Source: a virus
Taxonomy: Duplodnaviria > Heunggongvirae > Uroviricota > Caudoviricetes
Virus record (IMG/VR): IMGVR_UViG_2698536549_000005
DNA: 10,678 bases
Reading direction: 5' to 3' (one strand)
Shown here: positions 1 through 10,678 of the stretch, in pieces
Position numbering within the stretch: the stretch's first letter is position 1
Layout of the letters: each line of letters starts with the position of its first letter
Notes under the pieces: model-generated
The model's database searches: none
What the model was told of the DNA's origin: nothing
The model's input: only the letters and a program-made list of their open reading frames with translations
Translations under genes and position numbers: made by a program

Positions 1-1904
1 GCCTGCGGATTATCGCCATACACGTCACGAAGACGCTGCGCTTCAGACTCCCGCTGCGCCTGACGGTCAGTGAGACCACGGGCTTTTGCGCTGATGGCGG
101 CCTGCTTCGCGCTCTGCTGCTCTTCAAACCGTGCCGCCTGCTGTGCCAGCTCATTCAGGCGTTTCTGGTATTCAACCTTGTCGCCCAGCTCAGCCAGCTG
201 GCGTTTGTACTCCAGCGTCTCTTTCTCATGGGCCAGCAGGGATTTTTCCTGCCCGGATAACTGCCGTTTCGTGGCGGCCTCTTTCAGGACCGCATACTGA
301 CTTTCCGCTTTCCATAAATCACGGCGCTGCCGGCTGATTTTCTCATTCGCACCGCTGTGTTTTTCCAGCGTCCTGAGTTCAGCTTCAAGGGCAAGCAGAG
401 CCTCTCTTGCCTGCTCCTCTTCCCTCTCCCCGGCAGAGCGCGTTTTCGGTGATGTATGCTTTTTACCTGTCAGCTCTTCAGCCAGACGGCTGACGGCTTC
501 CTGCTGCCCCGGACCTTTGCTGACGCCTGTTGCACGCGAACGGTTGATGTACCCCATTTCCCCCTGGCGTATACGCGCATCCCGTTCCGCAATGGATTTT
601 CTCAGCGCCAGTTCATCGCGTTTTGTTTTCTCAATAAATACGCGGTTCTCTTCTGCCAGTTCACCAAACAACGCACCAACGCCGGGCACATTCTTTGTCG
701 TTTCCCAGGTTGACTGAATAAATTCAGCCAGCGCCAGATCCCCCTGCACAAGCAGCAGCTTCACCTGTTCAACGGTTCCGGCCACCACGTCAGTGATCAA
801 ACTGAGTGCCCCCAGTGTATGATCACCTATCCATGCCCATGCGTCAGAAGTCCAGGTTTTAACATCGTCCCAGATTTTTTCCACCGGCGTGGCCGCTTTA
901 TCAAGTTGCTCCAGACGTGCATTCATGACATCCGCAAACAGGGACATCGCCTCCGTCACCGCAGCCTGTTTACCTTTCGTGCGCTCAAGCTCATCAATAT
1001 GGCGTAACTGGGAAACGCTCAGGAAGTTATACTGCTGATTCAGGGAGGCCAGCGCCTTCACCGGATCTGCTGCAATCCCTTCAAAGGCTTTTTCCACCTT
1101 CCCGGCATCGTCCCCCACCGTCTGCAGCCATCTCTGAGAGGTTTCCCCCATGATCCGTAGCTGCCCGGCGGTATATTTCCCGCTTTCTGCCAGACGGGCC
1201 AGATTTTCTGCCGCCTGTCTGATACCACCACCGGCTTCATCGCTGATCACCCCGGCCATTTTCCACAATTCGGCCGTTGTGGTGGCAGCCGCCCCTCCGG
1301 TCAGGGTCAGTGAACGCAACAAGGCCCGGTCAGCCTGCTCTGCCTGCCAGGCGGCAGCAGCAAGCGCGGCCAGTACGGCAACCCCGCCACCTGCCGCCAC
1401 ACGGGCCACCGACATAAATCGTCCCAGTTCACCGGCATTCCGGGCATTTTCAGCCAGTGCATTTGCCGTATCTGACAGCGAATCCTCTGATGATTCAGAG
1501 GCATCCCTGATCCCGAGAAGTTCCTCCTTCAGCAGGGTAAGCAGGCTGAGCGGTCCACCGAATGAATCGCTGATCTGCCCCCCCTGCTGCAGCATGATAA
1601 GGAAGGGATTCTGACCACCGGCAAGCTGAGTGACAATATCCGTGAACTGTGCGGGCAGTGTGCGCATGGCAGCCTTATACTGTCCGACTGATATCCCGGC
1701 TTTTTGTGCAGCCAGCGCCTGTCGGCTCAGACTCTGCTCAGCAGCATCAGCCTGTTTTCTGAAAGACTGACTGACTTTCCCGGACATCAAATCAGCAAGC
1801 GCACTGGTTTCACCCAGCTCTTTTTTTACCCGCGCTGCCTCTTCAGAAAAACGGGCAGAATCCAGTGTCAGCACGGCTGTCAGATCGGCAAAATTACCTG
1901 CCAT
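1..1904 (-). CDS. H: Tail tape measure protein, lambda gpH-like; N-terminal ~634 codons, 3' end beyond window start
   Basis: ATG at 1904-1902 preceded by AGGAGGT Shine-Dalgarno; frame stays open to position 1. I hand-translated the start (MAGNFADLTAVLTLD...) and the segments at 1-59 and 61-120 (e.g. QQSAKQAAISAKARGLTDRQ, AQRESEAQRLRDVYGDNPQ), which closely resemble lambda gpH as I recall it. Sits immediately downstream of G/T as in lambda. Confidence 0.85.
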   Translation of the reverse strand, partial: MAGNFADLTAVLTLDSARFSEEAARVKKELGETSALADLMSGKVSQSFRKQADAAEQSLSRQALAAQKAGISVGQYKAAMRTLPAQFTDIVTQLAGGQNPFLIMLQQGGQISDSFGGPLSLLTLLKEELLGIRDASESSEDSLSDTANALAENARNAGELGRFMSVARVAAGGGVAVLAALAAAAWQAEQADRALLRSLTLTGGAAATTTAELWKMAGVISDEAGGGIRQAAENLARLAESGKYTAGQLRIMGETSQRWLQTVGDDAGKVEKAFEGIAADPVKALASLNQQYNFLSVSQLRHIDELERTKGKQAAVTEAMSLFADVMNARLEQLDKAATPVEKIWDDVKTWTSDAWAWIGDHTLGALSLITDVVAGTVEQVKLLLVQGDLALAEFIQSTWETTKNVPGVGALFGELAEENRVFIEKTKRDELALRKSIAERDARIRQGEMGYINRSRATGVSKGPGQQEAVSRLAEELTGKKHTSPKTRSAGEREEEQAREALLALEAELRTLEKHSGANEKISRQRRDLWKAESQYAVLKEAATKRQLSGQEKSLLAHEKETLEYKRQLAELGDKVEYQKRLNELAQQAARFEEQQSAKQAAISAKARGLTDRQAQRESEAQRLRDVYGDNPQ

Positions 1905-1947
1905 CGTGGTCACCTCCTGAAATGTCCTCTGATGCCATCAATAACTG

Positions 1948-2307
1948 TCACAACCTCCTTCCCTCCTCCCCGAAACGGACTCCACCGGCGAGGCCCGCCG
2001 CCTTCTGCATCAGTACATCATTTTCGTCCGGCGTCTCTGCCTGCCCTTCCTCTGCCTCCGGAGCGAACAGGCTGAAATCCGCCGGATGCATATCCGGATC
2101 GCAAAAAAACAGGCTGAGTACGGCGTACGTCAGCCCGGAAAAATGCATATCCAGCTGGGTATCCTGAAAATAATGCGTGCAGTAAAAATGTCGCCAGTCG
2201 GCATATTCGGTGGATGTCATCCCGGCAAGCATGGCGCGCCAGTCGGCTCTCCCCATCTCACGCGCCAGTTTCAGGACAAAGTTCAGCTCGCCTTCGAATG
2301 CTTTTTT
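1948..2307 (-). CDS. T: T segment of the tail assembly chaperone G-T fusion, reached by -1 frameshift from G
   Basis: The -1 frame relative to G is open from 2319 down to the stop at 1948-1950 and encodes ...MTSTEYADWRHFYCTHYFQDTQLDMHFSGLTYAVLSLFFCDPDMHPADFSLF..., which is lambda gpT-like. There is no independent ribosome-binding site; the frame is entered at a slippery heptamer inside the end of G. Confidence 0.75.
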   Translation of the reverse strand, partial: KKAFEGELNFVLKLAREMGRADWRAMLAGMTSTEYADWRHFYCTHYFQDTQLDMHFSGLTYAVLSLFFCDPDMHPADFSLFAPEAEEGQAETPDENDVLMQKAAGLAGGVRFGEEGRRL

Positions 2308-2705
2308 GATGTTACCGGCTCAGTCGCTTCTGCTTTCCCGGTTGGTTCAGGATCGGCATCGTGCCGGTTATCCAGCATACCTGAAAGATAAAGCACCCGG
2401 TTCGTTGCCTGATTCAGTGCATCAGCAGGCCATCCCAGCATCACTTCACGGCGGATCTGCTGCATCTCTGTCTCCGGAGAGGCCAGAGTGCCTTTGAGGG
2501 AATGGGAATGCCATAGCGACATCGCCACAAGCAGGGATGCCGTTTCCAGATATCGCTGGTTAATGTGCACGGCATCATGCTCCGTTGTCTCCTGTTGTGC
2601 TGCGTCTGAAACAAACTTCATATAATCAAACCGCTGCAGCGCAGACAGCTCCGACAGCGTGACGGACACCCCGTTATATTCAAATTGTTCTGTTTTCAGA
2701 AACAT
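2283..2705 (-). CDS. G: Tail assembly chaperone G (lambda gpG-like), 140 aa
   Basis: ORF-track protein MFLKTEQFEYNGVSVTLSELSALQ...LVAMSLWH... resembles lambda gpG in sequence and length; GGGGGGAG Shine-Dalgarno before the ATG at 2705; located between the major tail protein and tape measure genes. Confidence 0.85.
   Translation of the reverse strand: MFLKTEQFEYNGVSVTLSELSALQRFDYMKFVSDAAQQETTEHDAVHINQRYLETASLLVAMSLWHSHSLKGTLASPETEMQQIRREVMLGWPADALNQATNRVLYLSGMLDNRHDADPEPTGKAEATEPVTSKKHSKAS
2301..2307 (-). other. Programmed -1 ribosomal frameshift heptamer A AAA AAG (G to G-T recoding site)
   Basis: Minus strand reads tcA AAA AAG cat in the G frame (S-K-K, residues ~133-135 of 140). This is an X XXY YYZ heptamer in the correct zero frame. 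The -1 frame continues KKAFEGELNFVLKLAREMGRADW... into the T ORF without a stop. Confidence 0.65.
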
Positions 2706-2720
2706 GCTTTATCTCCCCCC

Positions 2721-3522
2721 TCAGCCCGCAGCGCCATCCGTGACGGTGATCTCCGCCACCGCCGCAAACTCACCATTGCNNNNNNNNNNNNNNNNNNNNN
2801 NNNNNNNNNNNNNNNNNNNNNNNNNNNNNGCCGGTGACAACAGGGATCTGCGCTTTACCTGCCGCAACACCTTTCACGGTGATCGTGTTCCCCTTCACGG
2901 TAATGGTGGCGAAATTCTGATTCGCTGAGGTTGCGCGGAACGTTTTATCCGTTGCGCCTTCCGGCTGAACGGCCACGGTCAGGGTGATATTCTGACCTTT
3001 TGCCACATTCCCCGTTAGTGGCGTCACGGTAATACCGGTGACCGGTGTGATTTCTCCCCGATCCTCAGCCAGCGACGGACGACCAATATTGGTGATTTTC
3101 ACAGTGCGGGTGATCACTTCTTTGGCGGTCACGGATTTACCAATGGCGCTCACCCAGCCCCGGAACACATCCACCGTGCCGTTCGGGAAGCGGATTTTGT
3201 AGGCCCGGGTCTCGCTGCTGTCAAACCAGGCAATCAAATCACGCTGCCCTTTCTCGCCGGGCTTCCAGGCCAGCGTAAAACTGGTGTCACCGGCNGATTT
3301 CTGCCCCTGCCCGGTGGATACCCAGTCAGCATCCTCATCATCCAGATAGTTATCGTCGTAGGATTCCGCCGTCATCTCGCCGGGGGTCAGATCCTTTATT
3401 TTTGCCAGGCGCGTCCAGTCATCATCTGACAGCGGGTTTGCCCAGGCATCGCCATTTCCGGTATAAACCCAGAGCGTGGTGCCGGAACCTTTTACCGGCG
3501 CAAGGGGATTAGGGAGCGTCAT
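2721..3522 (-). CDS. V: Major tail protein V with C-terminal Ig-like (Big_2-type) domain; interrupted by the 50-N gap at 2780-2829 and a single N at 3295
   Basis: ORF-track protein [27 protein letters not shown]... with C-terminal ...[27 protein letters not shown] resembles lambda gpV. The frame across the gap is unknown: the track ends it at 2770, but the post-gap sequence reads ...[18 protein letters not shown] (stop at 2721-2723) in another frame, which fits an Ig-like domain C-terminus and lies 15 nt upstream of the G start. Confidence 0.75.
2780..2829. other. Assembly gap (50 N) inside the 3' end of gene V
   Basis: Run of exactly 50 n characters. Confidence 0.95.
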
Positions 3523-3529
3523 AACGTCC

Positions 3530-3928
3530 TCACATCTGGTAAGTAATATTCCACTGGAGATCAGCCGATCCCCACATCATATATTCGTCATCCCGGCGAT
3601 AGTCATACCCCTGAAGATTCATCTTCAGCAGTAATGCACTTAGCCCGGGAACCGCCTCCAGCGCCGGAAGTATTTTTTCTTCCATCCACATATCCAGCAC
3701 GGAGTCCGTCTCTTTCGCCCTGAGAAACACCTCAATATGAAGCACGGCCTCCCAGGTCCCCTCGTCAACAAACTCCTCCGTCGCAGAAGCATCTGTCAGA
3801 TAAACCGCCACCGCAGGCAGTTCCTGTTCATCAATAAATACCGGGCGGCCGTCAAACCAGTTCACCCGCTCAGAAATATTTTCTTTCAGGGCAGACAGAA
3901 CTGCCGCCCGTATTTCACGGTGTTTCAT
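3530..3928 (-). CDS. U: Tail terminator protein U (lambda gpU-like), copy B, 132 aa
   Basis: Protein [16 protein letters not shown]...LHIEVFL...GYDYRRDD...ITYQM resembles lambda gpU along its whole length; its stop TGA is followed by GAGGA and then the V start. Confidence 0.85.
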
Positions 3929-3940
3929 ACACCCTCCCTG

Positions 3941-4047
3941 TCATTTTCGTTTCAGCACCAGGCGTAACTGATGCGCCATGGCCGTCATCATCTGCGCCGG
4001 TAATTTTTCCCGGTACATCCGGTCCCGTTCACGTTCAAAGGTTTCTG
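3941..4047 (-). CDS. gpZ-like tail completion protein, C-terminal 35-codon fragment (copy B), truncated upstream by the gap
   Basis: Translation ...ETFERERDRMYREKLPAQMMTAMAHQLRLVLKRK* is near-identical to the C-terminus of the full Z-like ORF at 4560-5189. The fused N-terminal part in the ORF track is an artefact of reading through the N run. Confidence 0.6.
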
Positions 4048-4097
4048 NNNNNNNNNNNNNNNNNNNNNNNNNNNNNNNNNNNNNNNNNNNNNNNNNN
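4048..4097. other. Assembly gap (50 N) between a V-like 5' fragment and a Z-like 3' fragment
   Basis: Run of exactly 50 n characters. Confidence 0.95.
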
Positions 4098-4141
4098 GTA
4101 CCGGAACCTTTCACCGGCTCAAGAGGATTTGGTGTTGCCAT
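4098..4141 (-). CDS. Major tail protein V-like, N-terminal 14-codon fragment (copy A), truncated downstream by the gap
   Basis: ATG at 4141-4139 gives MATPNPLEPVKGSG..., matching the N-terminus of the V ORF at 3522 ([14 protein letters not shown]); it sits 7 nt after the copy-A U stop, the same spacing as in copy B. Confidence 0.5.
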
Positions 4142-4148
4142 ATCGTCC

Positions 4149-4547
4149 TCACATCTCGTAGGTAATTTTCCACAGGAGATCTGCCGATCCCCACATCATA
4201 AACTCATCATCCCGGCGGTAGTCATACCCCTGAAGATTCATTTTCAGCAGTAATGCACTGAGCCCGGGAACTGCCTCCAGCGCAGGAAGAATTTTTTCTT
4301 CCATCCACATATCCAGTGCCGAGTCCGGTTCTTTTGCCCTGAGAAAAACCTCAATATGCAGTGTCGCCTCCCAGGTTCCCTCATCAACGAACTCGTCAGC
4401 AGCAGACGCATCTGTCAGGTAAACAGCAACAGCAGGCAGTTCCTGTTCATCAATAAAAACCGGGCGACCGTCAAACCAGCTCACCCTCTCAGAAATATTT
4501 TCTTTCAGGGCAGACAGAACTGCCGCCCGTATTTCACGGTGTCTCAT
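4149..4547 (-). CDS. U: Tail terminator protein U (lambda gpU-like), copy A, 132 aa
   Basis: Protein [16 protein letters not shown]...[26 protein letters not shown] resembles lambda gpU and is about 91% identical to copy B; GGGAGG Shine-Dalgarno before the ATG at 4547. Confidence 0.85.
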   Translation of the reverse strand: MRHREIRAAVLSALKENISERVSWFDGRPVFIDEQELPAVAVYLTDASAADEFVDEGTWEATLHIEVFLRAKEPDSALDMWMEEKILPALEAVPGLSALLLKMNLQGYDYRRDDEFMMWGSADLLWKITYEM

Positions 4548-4559
4548 ACACCCTCCCAG

Positions 4560-5189
4560 TCATTTTCTTTTCAGCACCAGGCGTAACTGATGCGTCATGG
4601 CTTTCATCATCTGCGCCGGTAATTTTTCCCGGTACATCCGGTCCCGTTCACGTTCAAAGGTTTCTGCCAGCGGTCCGGCAGTCGGAATCTTCACCACTTC
4701 GATCGGCAGACGGTGGCGTTTCGGCCTCCCTTTGCTGTCAGCGCCGGTGGACGATGATGCCCACGGCATACGCTGCATCACATGCCAGCGTCCGTTAGCC
4801 AGCCGGGTGATAAAGGCATCCGGGATCCGTCTTTTCCCCACAATCAGCACGCTGCCACCGCCTTTCGTGACCGAACGCTCGCCTTTCTTTCGTCGCTTTC
4901 TGCGGGAAAGCAGCACGCTGGCCGTCCCCAGTTTTATGGCGGGCAGATTACCGGTGTTGATGATGACCTTCGCATAAACCCTGTCTGCGCTGGCCCGTTG
5001 CAGGCGGATACGCTCACGGATGAGACGGCGCGGAACCGCCAGCTCCCTGGCAACCGAAGAGGCCGTTTTCGCGATGATGGACTCCGCCACACGGTTAAGT
5101 GTCGTGGCGGCAGCCCGGGGAACGGCACGGCGGTCAATTGCATCCAGATTTTTCATGGCCTGCGCCAGACCTTTTATTGCCATACTCAT
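4560..5189 (-). CDS. Z: Tail completion protein Z-like (lambda gpZ / minor tail protein Z family), 209 aa
   Basis: Protein contains motifs I associate with gpZ (...AVPRAA...LANGRWHVMQR...IEVVKIP..GPL) and is the right size and position (between FII-like and U); its ATG overlaps the upstream stop (ATGA). Confidence 0.7.
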   Translation of the reverse strand: MSMAIKGLAQAMKNLDAIDRRAVPRAAATTLNRVAESIIAKTASSVARELAVPRRLIRERIRLQRASADRVYAKVIINTGNLPAIKLGTASVLLSRRKRRKKGERSVTKGGGSVLIVGKRRIPDAFITRLANGRWHVMQRMPWASSSTGADSKGRPKRHRLPIEVVKIPTAGPLAETFERERDRMYREKLPAQMMKAMTHQLRLVLKRK

Positions 5190-5467
5190 TCCTGTTCGAC
5201 AAAAATCCGGGGTTTACCGTTGTACGTGTCATAACGGGTCACCGTCAGTGTGCGCCCCGCAAACACAACAACATCATGACGGGCCGGACGGTACCGGGCT
5301 GAAAACACCACCAGTGACAACTGGCTGCCCGAAAGCGCCCCCATCTCCGCGGACTCTTCCTCCGGCATCACGTCGTACACGACGCCGTTAATCTCCGCCT
5401 GTTTGCCCATCATCCGAACGGTCGCCACGTCCATCCGGCAACACATTCGCGTAAACAGATCAGACAT
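5186..5467 (-). CDS. Head-tail joining protein, gpFII-like (putative), 93 aa
   Basis: Small ORF between the head genes and Z; N-terminal pattern MSDLF...RMDVATVRMMGKQAEINGVVYDV resembles lambda gpFII (MADFDNLF...RADETIRGYMG...GVFDD); start overlaps the upstream gene by 8 nt. Confidence 0.55.
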   Translation of the reverse strand: MSDLFTRMCCRMDVATVRMMGKQAEINGVVYDVMPEEESAEMGALSGSQLSLVVFSARYRPARHDVVVFAGRTLTVTRYDTYNGKPRIFVEQE

Positions 5468-5786
5468 TGATTTTTACCGCCACAGTGGCGCTGTTTGCAG
5501 GAGCATTTTCCCAGGCTACCCCCGCGGCCACCGCACCGTCGGCAGCCAGCTGCACAACCCCGTCCTTCAGATAAACCACCGCGCCGGACTGAATGTCGTC
5601 AGCAGACTGTTTGGGCAGCAGGAACACGCCTTCGGCAAAACCGTCACCGGCCTCACCGGCAGGAATATCGGTAATGGCCACGGCCACCATACTGCCGACC
5701 ACCACCGCAGCACCGCTCAGGATGGTCTGATCTCCGGCATTCACCAGTTCAATGGTGGTACCGTCCTGTACAAAATTTTTCGCCAT
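5460..5786 (-). CDS. Small head-associated protein, probable decoration/cement protein (DUF2190-like), 108 aa
   Basis: Gly/Ala/Val-rich 108-aa ORF immediately downstream of the capsid gene, preceded by GGAG. The family assignment is from memory of similar small proteins adjacent to major capsid genes and is not verified. Confidence 0.5.
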   Translation of the reverse strand: MAKNFVQDGTTIELVNAGDQTILSGAAVVVGSMVAVAITDIPAGEAGDGFAEGVFLLPKQSADDIQSGAVVYLKDGVVQLAADGAVAAGVAWENAPANSATVAVKINV

Positions 5787-5806
5787 AATGCTGTTTCTCC
5801 GGACAG

Positions 5807-5823
5807 CCCCTGTGGGGCTGTTT
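5807..5823. promoter_or_regulatory. Perfect 7-bp inverted repeat CAGCCCC-TGT-GGGGCTG in the capsid/decoration intergenic region
   Basis: Stem-loop visible directly in the sequence, followed on the plus strand by TTTTT. It lies in the 5' leader of the decoration gene, about 15 nt upstream of its Shine-Dalgarno. Confidence 0.3.
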
Positions 5824-5832
5824 TTCAGGCAT

Positions 5833-5851
5833 AAAAAAAGCCCTTTCGGGC
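5833..5851 (-). terminator. Putative weak intrinsic terminator or attenuator after the capsid gene (GCCC-GAAA-GGGC hairpin followed by T7)
   Basis: Minus strand reads cactGCCCgaaaGGGCttttttt 23 nt downstream of the capsid stop; 4-bp GC stem with GNRA tetraloop followed by seven T. Confidence 0.35.
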
Positions 5852-5873
5852 AGTGATTGTGATAACGCGGTTA

Positions 5874-7853
5874 TCAGGCCACCGACGAACGCACCAGCCC
5901 GCGCCAGTCAAGTGGTGCCACTCCGGCATCAATACGGATTTTTGTGGCAATACCGTCAGTGGTGAAACCTTCCTGCTGATCAATGTATGGCGTGTCCACA
6001 CCATCCAGCCAGGCCACTTCAATGGTGTCAGTGCCCTGTGCCGCCGCCAGATACCAGGTTTTCGGATCTGCCGCATCAAGACGCGCTTCTGCAATCACCT
6101 CAGCAAAGTTCTGGATAGGGTTAATGACACCGGCGTTTGCATCCGCCCCTTTCACACTGGCCGATTTGATGGTCTGGTTCGCCACCGTCTCCAGTGCCAC
6201 CGGTACCAGCATAAAGGCCGGACGGATATTCAGGGCACGATCGCCTTCTTTCTGCAGGCGCATCATCTGACGGGCCGCATCCAGTCCGGAAACGGAGATC
6301 CCCCCGGTGGCAATATTTTTGTGATCGGCATGGAACAGCGCCTTACCGTCGGACAGTTTCGGGTTATCCGTCAGCACCTTGTAGACCAGGTCACCAATCG
6401 TTGCCTTCGCCGCACGCCCCATCTTCATCGGCACGTCCACCAGCATATTCAGATCATCATTGATAATGGCCTGGCGGGTGATGGAGAAAATCTCCCCGTA
6501 GGTGGCCAGAGCAATGGTCTCCTTGCGATCTGAGGTGGTGATGTATTTATACTCCGCCCCCTCACGAACCTGGCGCAGAGAACCAAAACCGCCCATCCCC
6601 ACGCGATACGCTGTTTTGAAGTCTGACAGGCGTCCCTTACGGGTCCACTTCTGGAAGGTTTCTTCTGATTCCTCCCAGCCCTGGATCAGCCCCTTGTTCG
6701 ACACATCCAGCAGGATATTGCCAAAATCAGAGGTGCTGTGCGTAAGCGCCAGCCCGACCATCTGCATGGGGTTATAACTGGCCACCCCAATACCGCGCTC
6801 CGTCAGTGACATACGAGCCCATTCACGCAGGGTCATCCCGTTATAGGCGTTATCCTTCTCGACATTTTCAAATCCGGCACGGGCCAGCATCGCCTGGCGG
6901 ATCCCGTCTCCCACAAAATTGCCGTTTCCGGCATAAATATGGGCCGGTGTGTTTTTGTTGGTCGGCGAGGACTCCTTGCCCATTTCATTCAGCAGACGTT
7001 CACGGGCCATTTCCAGCGAACAGTCAGGATCAGCCACGCACTGTGCCTGAAGCGTCTGATAGCGACCGCCGAACATGGCAAACAGATCGTTAATGCCTGA
7101 CATGCGGGCTTTCTGCTCAGCCATAACGCGGGCGCGAATGGTCGCCTCATCAGACACTGCCGGTACCGGTGATGGTTCTGTTACCGCCGGTGCAGGGATT
7201 GTCACTGTGGTATCACGCGGGGCACTGTTGCGTGGCGGAGTAATCATGTTTCGGATGGATTCCGGCATCTTTTTAAATTCCTCTGTACGTTTTGACTGAA
7301 TACATGCCATTGCCTCAACAGCGGGTGTCACCTGGTCAGCAAATCCGTGTGCCAGACATTCGGCACCGGACATCCAGGTTTCATCCGCCAGCATGGCGGC
7401 AATTTCATCGGTGGTTTTTCCGGTTTTCTGCGCATAGGCTGGCAACAGTACCGATTCGACTTTATCCAGCAAATCAGCATAACTGCGCATATCCTCAGCA
7501 TCCCCGCCACTGAATCCCCATGGCTTATGGATCATCATGAAGGCATTTTCCGGCATAATGACCGTATCACCGGCCATCGCAATCACAGATGCCATCGAGG
7601 CGGCAACGCCATCCACATACACGGTAATGGTCGCCCCCTGATTTTTCAGGGAATTAAAAATGGCGATGCCTTCAAAGACATCGCCACCCGGTGAGTTGAT
7701 GTGGAGATTAATGTGGGTGATATCACCCAGAGCATTCAGTTCGCTGACAAACTGCTTCGCGGTAACTCCCCAGAAACCAATCTCGTCATAAATATAAATA
7801 TCCGCGTCACCCGGCCCCCCAGCCTGCATCCTGAACCAGGATTTATTCTTCAT
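5874..7853 (-). CDS. Tripartite capsid gene: ClpP-like prohead protease + Pro/Ala-rich scaffold/linker + major capsid protein (Gifsy-2 type)
   Basis: N-terminal domain has the ClpP-family layout with a likely catalytic Ser in GVAASMAS and His in MMIHKP. The C-terminal ~330 aa is a major-capsid-like domain. The ORF-track start at 8045 is a GTG that overlaps the portal by 200 nt; the ATG at 7853 overlaps the portal stop by 11 nt and begins right at the protease domain (MKNKSWFRMQAGGPGDADIYIYDEIGFWG), so I take it as the more likely start. Confidence 0.8.
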   Translation of the reverse strand: MKNKSWFRMQAGGPGDADIYIYDEIGFWGVTAKQFVSELNALGDITHINLHINSPGGDVFEGIAIFNSLKNQGATITVYVDGVAASMASVIAMAGDTVIMPENAFMMIHKPWGFSGGDAEDMRSYADLLDKVESVLLPAYAQKTGKTTDEIAAMLADETWMSGAECLAHGFADQVTPAVEAMACIQSKRTEEFKKMPESIRNMITPPRNSAPRDTTVTIPAPAVTEPSPVPAVSDEATIRARVMAEQKARMSGINDLFAMFGGRYQTLQAQCVADPDCSLEMARERLLNEMGKESSPTNKNTPAHIYAGNGNFVGDGIRQAMLARAGFENVEKDNAYNGMTLREWARMSLTERGIGVASYNPMQMVGLALTHSTSDFGNILLDVSNKGLIQGWEESEETFQKWTRKGRLSDFKTAYRVGMGGFGSLRQVREGAEYKYITTSDRKETIALATYGEIFSITRQAIINDDLNMLVDVPMKMGRAAKATIGDLVYKVLTDNPKLSDGKALFHADHKNIATGGISVSGLDAARQMMRLQKEGDRALNIRPAFMLVPVALETVANQTIKSASVKGADANAGVINPIQNFAEVIAEARLDAADPKTWYLAAAQGTDTIEVAWLDGVDTPYIDQQEGFTTDGIATKIRIDAGVAPLDWRGLVRSSVA

Positions 7854-9345
7854 GCTGGCTTTCGGTGTCACGCTGATACTGTCGTTCAGTTCCGGCACTG
7901 TTGCCTCCTTTGTCGTTGACGGGGTCAGTATCAAAGACCAGCCCCAGTCTGCTGTTTTCATCAATTTCAGCCTTGCGGCGACGTTTGACCTCATCCGGAT
8001 TGCGCCCGCCGGCACGCACCCAGTCAGATTCTGTCGCTGCACCACCCCGGATCTGAATTCTCCAGGCTTCAGCTTCCTTAACCGGGTCGATCCACGGCAT
8101 CACTGGACCGGAATACGTCGCGTTATATAGCGTTTTCATCGCCACATCCGCCGGAATTTTCAGCAGACCTGCCGCAACCACCATATTCAGCCATGTCCGG
8201 TACACCGGGCGGGTTACCGCACCAATAAAACAGTCCTGCAGGATCAGGTAACCATCCGTGGACTCGACCAGCTCCTGCCGCTGGGCGCTGTAGGTGCCGT
8301 TATAGTTACGCGCCGCACTGGAAAAACTCAGACGACTGCCAGCTGCCACTGCACGCAACTGGCCGTTGCGGAAAGTTTCAAGGTTGGGATTGGGACGGTC
8401 AGATTTGACCATGCCGATATCCTCGCCCTTGCGCAAATCGTCATAAATAATACCCGGGGTGATATGGACTTCCCGCTCGGTTTCTTTGATCCCCGGATCT
8501 TCATAGTCCTGTCCGTCACCTTTACGGATATACAGTCCCAGCGCCGCAGCAATACGCGCCGCTGTCAGTTCCGCATCCTCATACTCTTTAAGGGCACTGA
8601 TCCGCATCAGCACCCCCGATAACATGGATGAGCCTCGCGTCTGATGCAGACGACGAGTGAACTTCAGGTGGATCATTTTTCCGGCAGCGATTTCTTTCGT
8701 ATCACTCTGCCGGCCGCTGACCGGATAATTTTTATAAACCAGATATTTTTTCGGTCTTCCCCACTCATCAAGAAAAACCCCCTGATTCAGTCCGGCGGAT
8801 TCATCAGTGCGCATGGGAACAAAATCCGGCTCCATCGCCTCAAGCCAGAATGGCACTCCCGCCGTCCGTTCCAGACCGTTTCCCGCACCACTGACCATCT
8901 GCGCAAACACTTCACCATCCCGCAGCCAGGTCCGCAGCAGTAAACGTTCAAGCACGGGACGGGTATACTGCCCTGTCACATCCGGACTCACGGACCATTC
9001 AGCCCACAACCGGCGGATATCCGCAGCCAGCTCTGCCGCCATTTCCCCGTTTTTTCGTAATGGCTGAGGCTCCACAATAATTCCCCTGGCACCAATCACC
9101 CGCTCTTCCAGCTTGTCAAACACACCAATCACCAGGTCATGATTGATATCCAGAAAACGGGCCTGCTCCCGCAGGGAAACCGCACCGTATTTACTGAGCT
9201 GATCAGCAGAGCGATTTTCCCGCCGGGCTTTATGTGTCCGGGTCGGTTTCACCGCCTCATAGGCCATGATTAACGCCCTTGAACGCAGTCTGGCTGCTTT
9301 CCATCCGGGGGAAAACACGCCTATCACATCATCAATAATTGCCAT
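7843..9345 (-). CDS. Portal protein, lambda gpB family, 500 aa
   Basis: 500-aa ORF between the W-like and protease/capsid genes; segments such as ...LSFSSAARNYNGTYSAQRQ... resemble lambda gpB; its ATG overlaps the W stop (TAATG). Confidence 0.8.
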   Translation of the reverse strand: MAIIDDVIGVFSPGWKAARLRSRALIMAYEAVKPTRTHKARRENRSADQLSKYGAVSLREQARFLDINHDLVIGVFDKLEERVIGARGIIVEPQPLRKNGEMAAELAADIRRLWAEWSVSPDVTGQYTRPVLERLLLRTWLRDGEVFAQMVSGAGNGLERTAGVPFWLEAMEPDFVPMRTDESAGLNQGVFLDEWGRPKKYLVYKNYPVSGRQSDTKEIAAGKMIHLKFTRRLHQTRGSSMLSGVLMRISALKEYEDAELTAARIAAALGLYIRKGDGQDYEDPGIKETEREVHITPGIIYDDLRKGEDIGMVKSDRPNPNLETFRNGQLRAVAAGSRLSFSSAARNYNGTYSAQRQELVESTDGYLILQDCFIGAVTRPVYRTWLNMVVAAGLLKIPADVAMKTLYNATYSGPVMPWIDPVKEAEAWRIQIRGGAATESDWVRAGGRNPDEVKRRRKAEIDENSRLGLVFDTDPVNDKGGNSAGTERQYQRDTESQHEE

Positions 9346-9557
9346 TAAAACCTCGCCAGTTTAAATCCCGGTTTTCCCCGCCTGCGGCTCACCATCGCGG
9401 CAAGCCTGCGTTCCCACTCCTGACGTCCGGCGCGGATCTGAGAAAGGCTTTCCAGCGTCAGTTGCTGCCCGTTGAAGGTGACAGACTTCCCCTCCAGTAC
9501 GGCCATTTCCGCTTCACGGTACCGCTGTATCATTTCTCTGGCTTCTTCTGTGCTCAC
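9345..9557 (-). CDS. W: Head-tail joining protein gpW-like (about 70 aa from the GTG start)
   Basis: Protein ...STEEAREMIQRYREAEMAVLEGKSVTFNGQQLTLESL...RRRGKPGF resembles lambda gpW. A GTG at 9557-9555 overlaps the terminase stop (GTGA) and has an AGGAGG Shine-Dalgarno 6 nt upstream; the ORF-track ATG at 9581 would add 8 residues and overlap the terminase by 28 nt. Confidence 0.65.
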   Translation of the reverse strand: MSTEEAREMIQRYREAEMAVLEGKSVTFNGQQLTLESLSQIRAGRQEWERRLAAMVSRRRGKPGFKLARF

Positions 9558-10678
9558 AACCAGCCTCCTGATGTTATCCATGGATTATCTTCCGCACGCT
9601 CCGTCCGCAGTTTTTTCTTCCGGCGACGGCGTTTTTCTGCCCCGGCCGTCAGTTCCGGGGATACCGTTTCACCAGAACGCTCCTGCGGGAAGACGAGCCA
9701 CGTTTCCCGCTGTGCCCAGTCCGGTGCGGAGGGCCAGCGGATCTTTTCATAACCATGCAGAACAGCAAGCGCATCCGCATAAACCAGCAGGTCAAACGCC
9801 TCGTTAGCGCCCCTGCCCGGTTTTCGCCATTTTCCGTCACTGCCGCGCTCTTCATAGGTCAGCTCATCGTAAAACCACCGCCCCAGCCAGTCGGGAAAGT
9901 GGATATAATTCGGCCCTGGTGTGTCACGCCACAGGGCATTATTTACACGGTCCTTAAACGCATCCGTCTGAACCAGCCACAGCGCGACATCGCCACTGGC
10001 TCTGGCACGGCGGGCACTTCTGCCGGTATTATCTGGGAAGGTACGGTTAATCAGCCTGTCACGGCGAAGACCATCCCCCTTGAACAGAAACACCCTGTTG
10101 CCCAGTCCGTCACTCCGGCAACGACGCCAGAAACGATAGGCGTTATCTGTCACCCCGGCTTCCCCTCCCGTATCCACCGCCATGGCCATCAGACGCATGC
10201 GCACATCCGGATCAGAAGCCAGCGGCCATGTTTTATGGAACACATCCGTCAGCAACAAATCCCAGTCCTCCGGATATGCCGCCGGATCAACCGGCAGACT
10301 TTCACCGTTGGGACTGCAGCGCAGTGAATGCCGGATGTTGTAGCGATCAACAATCCAGCGTTCCCCCTGCTCTCCGTATCCGGTGATCTGCACAACAAAA
10401 CGGCGATTTTTACCGCCCTGTACGTCAACCGTTGCCTCAATAAAACGCACACCATCCGGCACAGATCGCCGGGGAAACGGCTCGGCACGCTGTTCAAGCA
10501 GTTCACTTTTACGCTGTTCCGTGGCTGAACGGGGCAGATAGGGTCGTCCGATATCGGTGTTCACCACCGCTTTCAGGGTCTCTTCACTGCCGGTTCGCTC
10601 ATACTCTTCTTCTGCCGCCAGCAGTTTAAAAATCAGTTGTTCCCAGGTCTGAAACGCCGCAGCCGGCCCCTCCATCCA
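9554..10678 (-). CDS. Terminase large subunit (gpA family), C-terminal ~374 codons; 5' end beyond window end
   Basis: Frame is open to the last base of the window (in-frame W codon upstream of the first M); the protein resembles the C-terminal nuclease region of lambda gpA-type terminases; located directly upstream of the W and portal genes. Confidence 0.8.
   Translation of the reverse strand, partial: WMEGPAAAFQTWEQLIFKLLAAEEEYERTGSEETLKAVVNTDIGRPYLPRSATEQRKSELLEQRAEPFPRRSVPDGVRFIEATVDVQGGKNRRFVVQITGYGEQGERWIVDRYNIRHSLRCSPNGESLPVDPAAYPEDWDLLLTDVFHKTWPLASDPDVRMRLMAMAVDTGGEAGVTDNAYRFWRRCRSDGLGNRVFLFKGDGLRRDRLINRTFPDNTGRSARRARASGDVALWLVQTDAFKDRVNNALWRDTPGPNYIHFPDWLGRWFYDELTYEERGSDGKWRKPGRGANEAFDLLVYADALAVLHGYEKIRWPSAPDWAQRETWLVFPQERSGETVSPELTAGAEKRRRRKKKLRTERAEDNPWITSGGWL

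Follow-up and report, generated by a model that had tools for sequence, protein, structure and literature searches.

An apparent duplication of the Z-U-V tail module in a lambdoid prophage scaffold is very probably an assembly artefact

Homologous lambdoid prophages break and confuse short-read assemblies of Shiga toxin-producing E. coli (STEC) (PMC7175801, PMC10925052), and homologous tail-gene blocks of 5.8-10 kb are common to the prophages of one O157:H7 chromosome (PMC10925052). The broken or misassembled prophages of draft STEC and other E. coli genomes, for which the general problem has been described in both of these papers, are the closest counterparts of the locus analyzed here. In both, the structural modules of several prophages are near-identical, phage genes are interrupted by contig breaks, some contigs are short and phage-derived, N spacers have a fixed length, and redundant alternative paths follow one another in series. 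Nothing essential differs, although here the redundant piece would be the 569-bp tail of a large contig and not a small contig. A further parallel is offered by uncollapsed haplotigs with false scaffold duplications, where two versions of one locus, about 90% identical, are likewise kept adjacent as a gap-bounded apparent tandem. That case concerns alleles of a diploid; the genome here is haploid, and the two versions in it most likely represent prophage paralogues.

The whole stretch of DNA that was analyzed, hereafter the window, has a length of 10,678 nucleotides. Its tail genes were compared with the Z-U-V-G-T-H region of phage lambda, which they match in gene order and in Pfam families, with one copy of each gene once the window is de-duplicated. 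The -1 slippery site of G-T is likewise present: the motif A AAA AAG at 2307-2301, in the G frame, is intact, and the -1 frame is open to 1948. The window differs from lambda in its alleles, which are those of the Stx-phage/O157-type prophage lineage, and in its head module, which carries a ClpP-protease/major-capsid fusion where lambda has C/Nu3/D/E.

Runs of 50 N were found at 2780-2829 and 4048-4097, in addition to a lone N at 3295, dividing the window into a left contig (1-2779), a middle contig (2830-4047, 1,218 bp) and a right contig (4098-10678). All genes are carried on the minus strand, in the order Z_A, U_A, a 5' fragment of V_A (44 nt), gap, a 3' fragment of Z_B (107 nt), U_B, V_B, gap, 3' end of V, and G. 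Pfam searches returned the Z, U, V and G tail families with E-values of 1e-35 to 1e-66, in lambda gene order. The features are as follows.

1-2779, minus strand: left contig, holding the 5' part of the tape-measure gene, T, G and the 3' end of V (ungapped alignment to L003/L004 and RefSeq annotation)
1-1904, minus strand: 5' part of the tape-measure gene (H) (L003/L004 alignment and RefSeq annotation)
1954-2256, minus strand: T (L003/L004 alignment and RefSeq annotation)
2283-2705, minus strand: G (chaperone), Pfam Phage_TAC_2
2721-2779, minus strand: last 59 nt of V, with the stop codon at 2721-2723
2780-2829: first 50-N run, an empty placeholder without missing sequence
2830-4047, minus strand: middle contig with the copy-B alleles, over its full length 99.8% identical to 13 finished genomes
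2832-3522, minus strand: V_B codons 1-230 (tail tube), Pfam lambda tail tube Phage_TTP_12 and Big_2
3295: single N in V_B, in the third position of a Ser codon (TCN)
3530-3928, minus strand: U_B, Pfam Phage_tail_U
3941-4047, minus strand: 3' fragment of Z_B; by direct translation, 32/34 amino acids identical to the C-terminus of Z_A
3985-4047: last 63 nt before the middle contig ends, exactly equal to 4604-4666; here the assembly-graph fork would have its join point
4048-4097: second 50-N run, a placeholder whose flanking contig ends dovetail over 569 bp at 89.6%
4098-4666, minus strand: copy-A tail of the right contig, the putatively redundant segment from the other prophage branch
4098-4141, minus strand: first 44 nt of V_A, within the copy-A tail
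4149-4547, minus strand: U_A, Pfam Phage_tail_U
4560-4666, minus strand: 3' part of Z_A, within the copy-A tail
4560-5189, minus strand: Z, Pfam Minor_tail_Z
4667-10678, minus strand: remainder of the right contig, compatible with the A and the B branch alike (Pfam and RefSeq annotation)
4667 to 5183, minus strand: 5' part of Z, in the right contig
5186-5467, minus strand: FII-like gene (Pfam/RefSeq annotation)
5460-5786, minus strand: cement/DUF2190 gene (Pfam/RefSeq annotation)
Upstream rest to 10678, minus strand: ClpP-protease/major-capsid fusion, portal, W-like gene and terminase large subunit, the latter cut by the window end

The two copies were aligned without gaps, 3479-4047 against 4098-4666, at an offset of 619 bp. 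Identity amounted to 510/569 positions (89.6%), which is far above chance; all other offsets tried for a repeat gave 20-30%. The longest exact runs shared by the copies measure 63 nt (3985-4047, in the 3' part of Z) and 55 nt (3869-3923, at the 5' end of U). An earlier note on this DNA, made from the letters alone, had reported the two 50-N gaps and their coordinates, the minus-strand gene order with the labels Z, U, U, V and G, the colinear 619-bp offset, an identity of about 90% between the copies, and a nearly identical stretch around the Z 3' end and the U 5' end; on all of these points it proved correct.

The U_A and U_B proteins are identical at 121 of 132 amino acids (122 of 133 aligned positions when the stop codon is included). 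Over the entire repeat the copies differ at 59 sites in 569 bp, and 32 of the 43 differences falling in U are at third codon positions. Because the divergence is as high as 10.4% and mostly at third codon positions, copies A and B are old functional alleles and not a fresh duplication. The near-identity expected of an in-situ duplication was not found over these 569 bp, where identity is 89.6%.

The boundaries of the copies coincide with those of the contigs. Copy B ends where the middle contig ends (4047, with the gap from 4048), copy A starts where the right contig starts, and neither can be extended past its contig end; the repeat is a dovetail of two contig ends facing the second gap. The last copy-B-specific base lies at 3984, and the middle contig stops exactly 63 nt later.

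Both gaps had been said to fall where a repeat would break an assembly. This holds for the second gap, where the dovetail repeat was found, but not for the first, at which no repeat is visible in the window. Base 2779 corresponds to position 7002 of L001 and base 2830 to position 7001, bases 2830-2831 repeating 2778-2779. In most finished genomes listed, including all of those at an identity of at least 99%, the left and middle contigs together span 3,995 bp (4047 - 50 - 2). With a 2-bp overlap of its flanks in finished references, the first gap conceals no sequence, and repeat-induced sequence loss at this point was rejected on account of the same overlap, which leaves zero missing bases. Since both N runs count exactly 50, they are conventional spacers and not size estimates. 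Following the joining of V_B to 2721-2779, an intact V of 249 amino acids was obtained, 248/249 identical to the V of STEC2017-197 (WP_022581880.1, L003).

A single-unit path of 10,007 bp was composed of 1-2779, 2832-4047 and 4667-10678, with 4048-4666 and 2780-2831 removed. This path aligned end to end and with zero indels to E. coli JNEC-KY176 (NZ_AP045172) at 99.27% and, similarly, to STEC2017-197 (NZ_CP075663) at 98.67%. The sequence across the new join, 3523-4047 followed by 4667-5189 (1,048 bp), is 100% identical to JNEC-KY176, and the joined Z of 207 amino acids is identical to the JNEC-KY176 protein at 207/207 residues (WP_096852448.1). Collinearity with finished genomes was thus regained by removing one copy, and both Z and V were intact. 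The reading preferred in the earlier note, in which sequence of a second, related lambdoid prophage was scaffolded into the locus, is supported, as is its warning that the local annotation (two U genes, truncated Z and V) is not to be trusted.

To decide which piece is redundant, the copy-A tail was compared with prophages of both types. It shows 2/569 mismatches to the A-type prophage of FHI_NMBU_10 (L002), versus 60/569 to B-type prophages. This A-type prophage is 79-89% identical to the left contig of the window. In FORC_041, which is among the best A-type genomes, the right-hand piece alone matches at 99.9% and the two-piece match of 2830-5500 averages about 95.5%; by arithmetic, its V/U region would be about 90% identical to the middle contig. 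Copy B is collinear with both flanks in finished genomes, namely with the left contig (V 3' end-G-T-H) and with 4667 onward. Since it continues into the G-T-H flank on one side and fits onto 4667 and beyond on the other, the redundant piece would be the 569-bp copy-A tail at 4098-4666. The possibility that copy B is a foreign contig was considered and rejected, its collinearity with both flanks being found in finished genomes and the continuation of copy A (L002) diverging from the left contig. In this respect the earlier note, which would have taken copy B as the mis-scaffolded contig, pointed to the wrong copy.

The 5' part of Z, 4667-5189, fits either branch. It matches JNEC-KY176, a carrier of the B allele, at 523/523 positions, and the A-type L002 equally without mismatch. 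Many finished genomes contain the right contig as a single uninterrupted alignment at 99.2-99.3%, and the copy-A tail followed by these head genes is a natural arrangement too.

Both alleles were found together in FHI_NMBU_10 (NZ_CP046539), where the middle contig matches at 0.167 Mb (99.8%) and the start of the right contig at 1.541 Mb (99.8%). In this genome the copy-B and copy-A modules lie in two prophages 1.37 Mb apart, each with one Z, one U and one V, and the capsid-fusion, portal and W-like proteins do not differ between them. A short-read assembler faced with exactly such an arrangement would fork at the 3' end of Z. Homologous prophages occupy up to 7 places per genome in these E. 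coli.

We put the probability that the duplicated Z-U-V module is an assembly or scaffolding artefact, and not genome structure, at roughly 0.9. Most likely, the genome of the sequenced E. coli strain contains a pair of lambdoid prophages of the Stx-phage type that are close relatives. They would be near-identical from the head genes to the 5' region of Z and would differ by about 10% in the 3' end of Z, in U and on into V. The presence of the second prophage in this particular strain is something that we infer as most likely and do not see. The assembler would have run the common head region into one branch, resulting in the right contig with its copy-A tail (4098-4666). The other branch would have been left separate as the middle contig (copy B), which would end 63 nt, the length of one k-mer, after the start of the shared sequence. 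Finally, the scaffolder would have put the alternative branches in series, with fixed 50-N spacers between all contigs. The real locus would then have one Z-U-V unit, deletion of 4048-4666 and 2780-2831 giving the copy-B prophage, and the copy-A tail would come from the second prophage, whose V_A-G-T-H continuation should be elsewhere in the assembly, on another contig.

At a fork, a de Bruijn-graph assembler leaves a contig that ends k-1 or k bases into sequence common with another contig. Judging from the middle-contig end 63 nt into common sequence, the break at the second gap looks like such a fork in the assembly graph. The break at the first gap shows a 2-bp overlap, which is not k-mer-sized, and a simple de Bruijn model with a single k leaves some contig ends unexplained. 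In the comparison with the A-type L002, exact A/B runs next to the left/middle break and next to 4098, where the right contig starts, measured 35-59 nt, and none reached 63 nt. A third related prophage, or trimming of contig ends by the assembler, is a possible origin of the breaks at 2779|2830 and 4098.

An unlikely alternative, implied by the refuting test of the earlier note, is that whole contigs of two prophages were combined. Prophage A would account for the whole right contig and a prophage B, with its own distinct head genes elsewhere in the assembly, for the other two, and a reference-guided scaffolder would have stacked them on one reference locus. Dovetailing contigs and N runs of fixed length are what one would expect from reference-based contig ordering, and copy B is not always accompanied by the Z 5' sequence of the window, since in the B-type prophages of STEC2017-197 and FHI_NMBU_10 the 5' part of Z is only 88% identical to 4667-5189. 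However, with a diverged Z 5' part there would be no reason for the middle contig to end at 4047. This end, exactly 63 nt beyond the last base that discriminates A from B, is the one expected of common sequence further on, and the perfect match of the join to a finished genome over 1,048 bp also argues against such a chimera. Under this reading the module would again be artefactual, and the strain itself would lack the join 4047|4667.

We consider it very unlikely that the scaffold reflects a real tandem hetero-duplication, Z_A-U_A-V_A'-'Z_B-U_B-V_B, arisen by illegitimate or unequal recombination between two different resident lambdoid prophages. The geometry is formally compatible with it: the V'/'Z junction would sit inside the second gap (4048-4097), and full-length Z_A, U_A, U_B and V_B would persist, so that one tail operon would contain two diverged tail-terminator (U) genes as well as truncated V and Z fragments. 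The scaffolded region 2830-5500 was used as a query for such a unit, a true A+B tandem being expected to give a full-length span at an identity of at least 99%. Among the best 60 of 1,710 matching finished-genome records, from complete E. coli genomes, no tandem unit was present and the span was 2,052 bp (2671 - 50 - 569); none of the 1,710 records matched the query at 99% or above, the best overall reaching 97.5%. Similarly, the full-length matches listed among phage records contained no tandem unit and had the 2,052-bp span, phage CP-1639 excepted, in which the longer match overlies annotated IS629 ORFs. The 10% divergence of the copies argues against the hetero-duplication as well, and so do the copy boundaries, which are contig ends, one with a 63-nt exact overlap, and the single-unit path, which is gap-free against finished genomes with Z and V intact. 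Artefact and tandem duplication had been held undecidable from the sequence alone; comparison with the finished genomes leaves the latter almost no room, and each of its expectations that was put to the test failed.

It is hardly credible that the template was mixed, with two sub-populations or a contaminant in the culture carrying allelic versions of one prophage and causing the same fork: the same graph topology would result, and the N at 3295, where B-type references have G and the A-type L002 has A, sits on an A/B-differing site and would fit a column of mixed reads; it is one site only, however, ambiguity being seen at 1/108 A/B-differing sites of the middle contig, and genomes of these E. 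coli as a rule contain more than one homologous prophage, both alleles being present in FHI_NMBU_10.

Taken at face value, annotation of the scaffold would list U twice, together with one truncated form each of V and Z and a V split by a gap; probably none of these exists. Counts of tail-gene copies, prophage typing and inference of pseudogenes from this draft would mislead. The locus almost certainly contains no new biology and represents an ordinary artefact of two related lambdoid prophages. Correction by removal of 4048-4666 and 2780-2831 would yield an intact lambda-like tail operon, and the 569-bp copy-A tail should be taken as evidence of a second related prophage in the strain.

The V gene of the middle contig (V_B) contains a lone N at position 3295, which falls in the third position of a TCN codon and leaves the encoded serine unchanged. 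At the matching base, G is found in the B-type references and A in the A-type reference, the two types being prophage alleles that diverge by about 10% from the Z 3′ end through U into V. The N may represent a consensus column in which reads of the two prophages were mixed, although among the 108 sites in the middle contig at which A and B differ it is the only ambiguous one. Near the contig ends at 2779/2830 and at 4098, no exact repeats of at least 63 nt shared by the A-type and B-type references were found, local exact runs being 35-59 nt, and the overlap between the left contig and the middle one is just 2 bp. These breaks may reflect trimming of contig ends by the assembler, or the strain may carry a third related prophage that caused them.

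The following features were located downstream of V and in the head region:

2283-2705, minus strand, gene G, with its stop codon at 2285-2283
2301-2307, minus strand, slippery heptamer A AAA AAG in the zero frame of G
1948-2256, minus strand, gene T, with its stop at 1948
5874-8045, minus strand, long ORF of 723 aa with a GTG start, from the ORF finder
1-1554, tape-measure segment, more variable than the rest of the left contig

The heptamer lies about 5 codons upstream of the G stop codon, and the -1 frame is free of stops from 2301 to the stop of T. Judged from sequence, a programmed -1 frameshift signal of the lambda G-T type is intact in the window. In the RefSeq annotation of related finished genomes, T is an 'incomplete' pseudogene; we read this label as a frameshift left out of the annotation model rather than as gene decay.

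At the position matching the 723-aa ORF, finished relatives have an annotated 1,980-2,025-nt gene for a ClpP-like prohead protease/major capsid fusion protein, and the ORF is probably too long because of the upstream GTG start chosen by the ORF finder. This annotation places the head module in the Stx-phage/O157-prophage type, in contrast to the C/Nu3/D/E arrangement of lambda.

The tape-measure segment is 98.65% identical to JNEC-KY176 and 99.2% to STEC2017-197. Against the B-type prophage of FHI_NMBU_10 it is mostly unalignable, only about 1-437 aligning (91-94%), in a different register. The segment marks a further mosaic boundary.

Gene Z was compared over window positions 3985-5189 with the B-type prophages of FHI_NMBU_10, STEC2017-197 and JNEC-KY176. 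The Z 3′ end, together with U and V, shows about 100% identity to all three, whereas the 5′ part of Z (4667-5189) is 100% identical to JNEC-KY176 and only 88% to STEC2017-197 and FHI_NMBU_10. Z is mosaic among the finished genomes compared, and this contrast implies a natural recombination joint near the conserved 63-nt stretch (3985-4047, identical to 4604-4666). The joint coincides with the position of the proposed assembly fork, and the mosaicism of Z is of the kind ordinary in phages.
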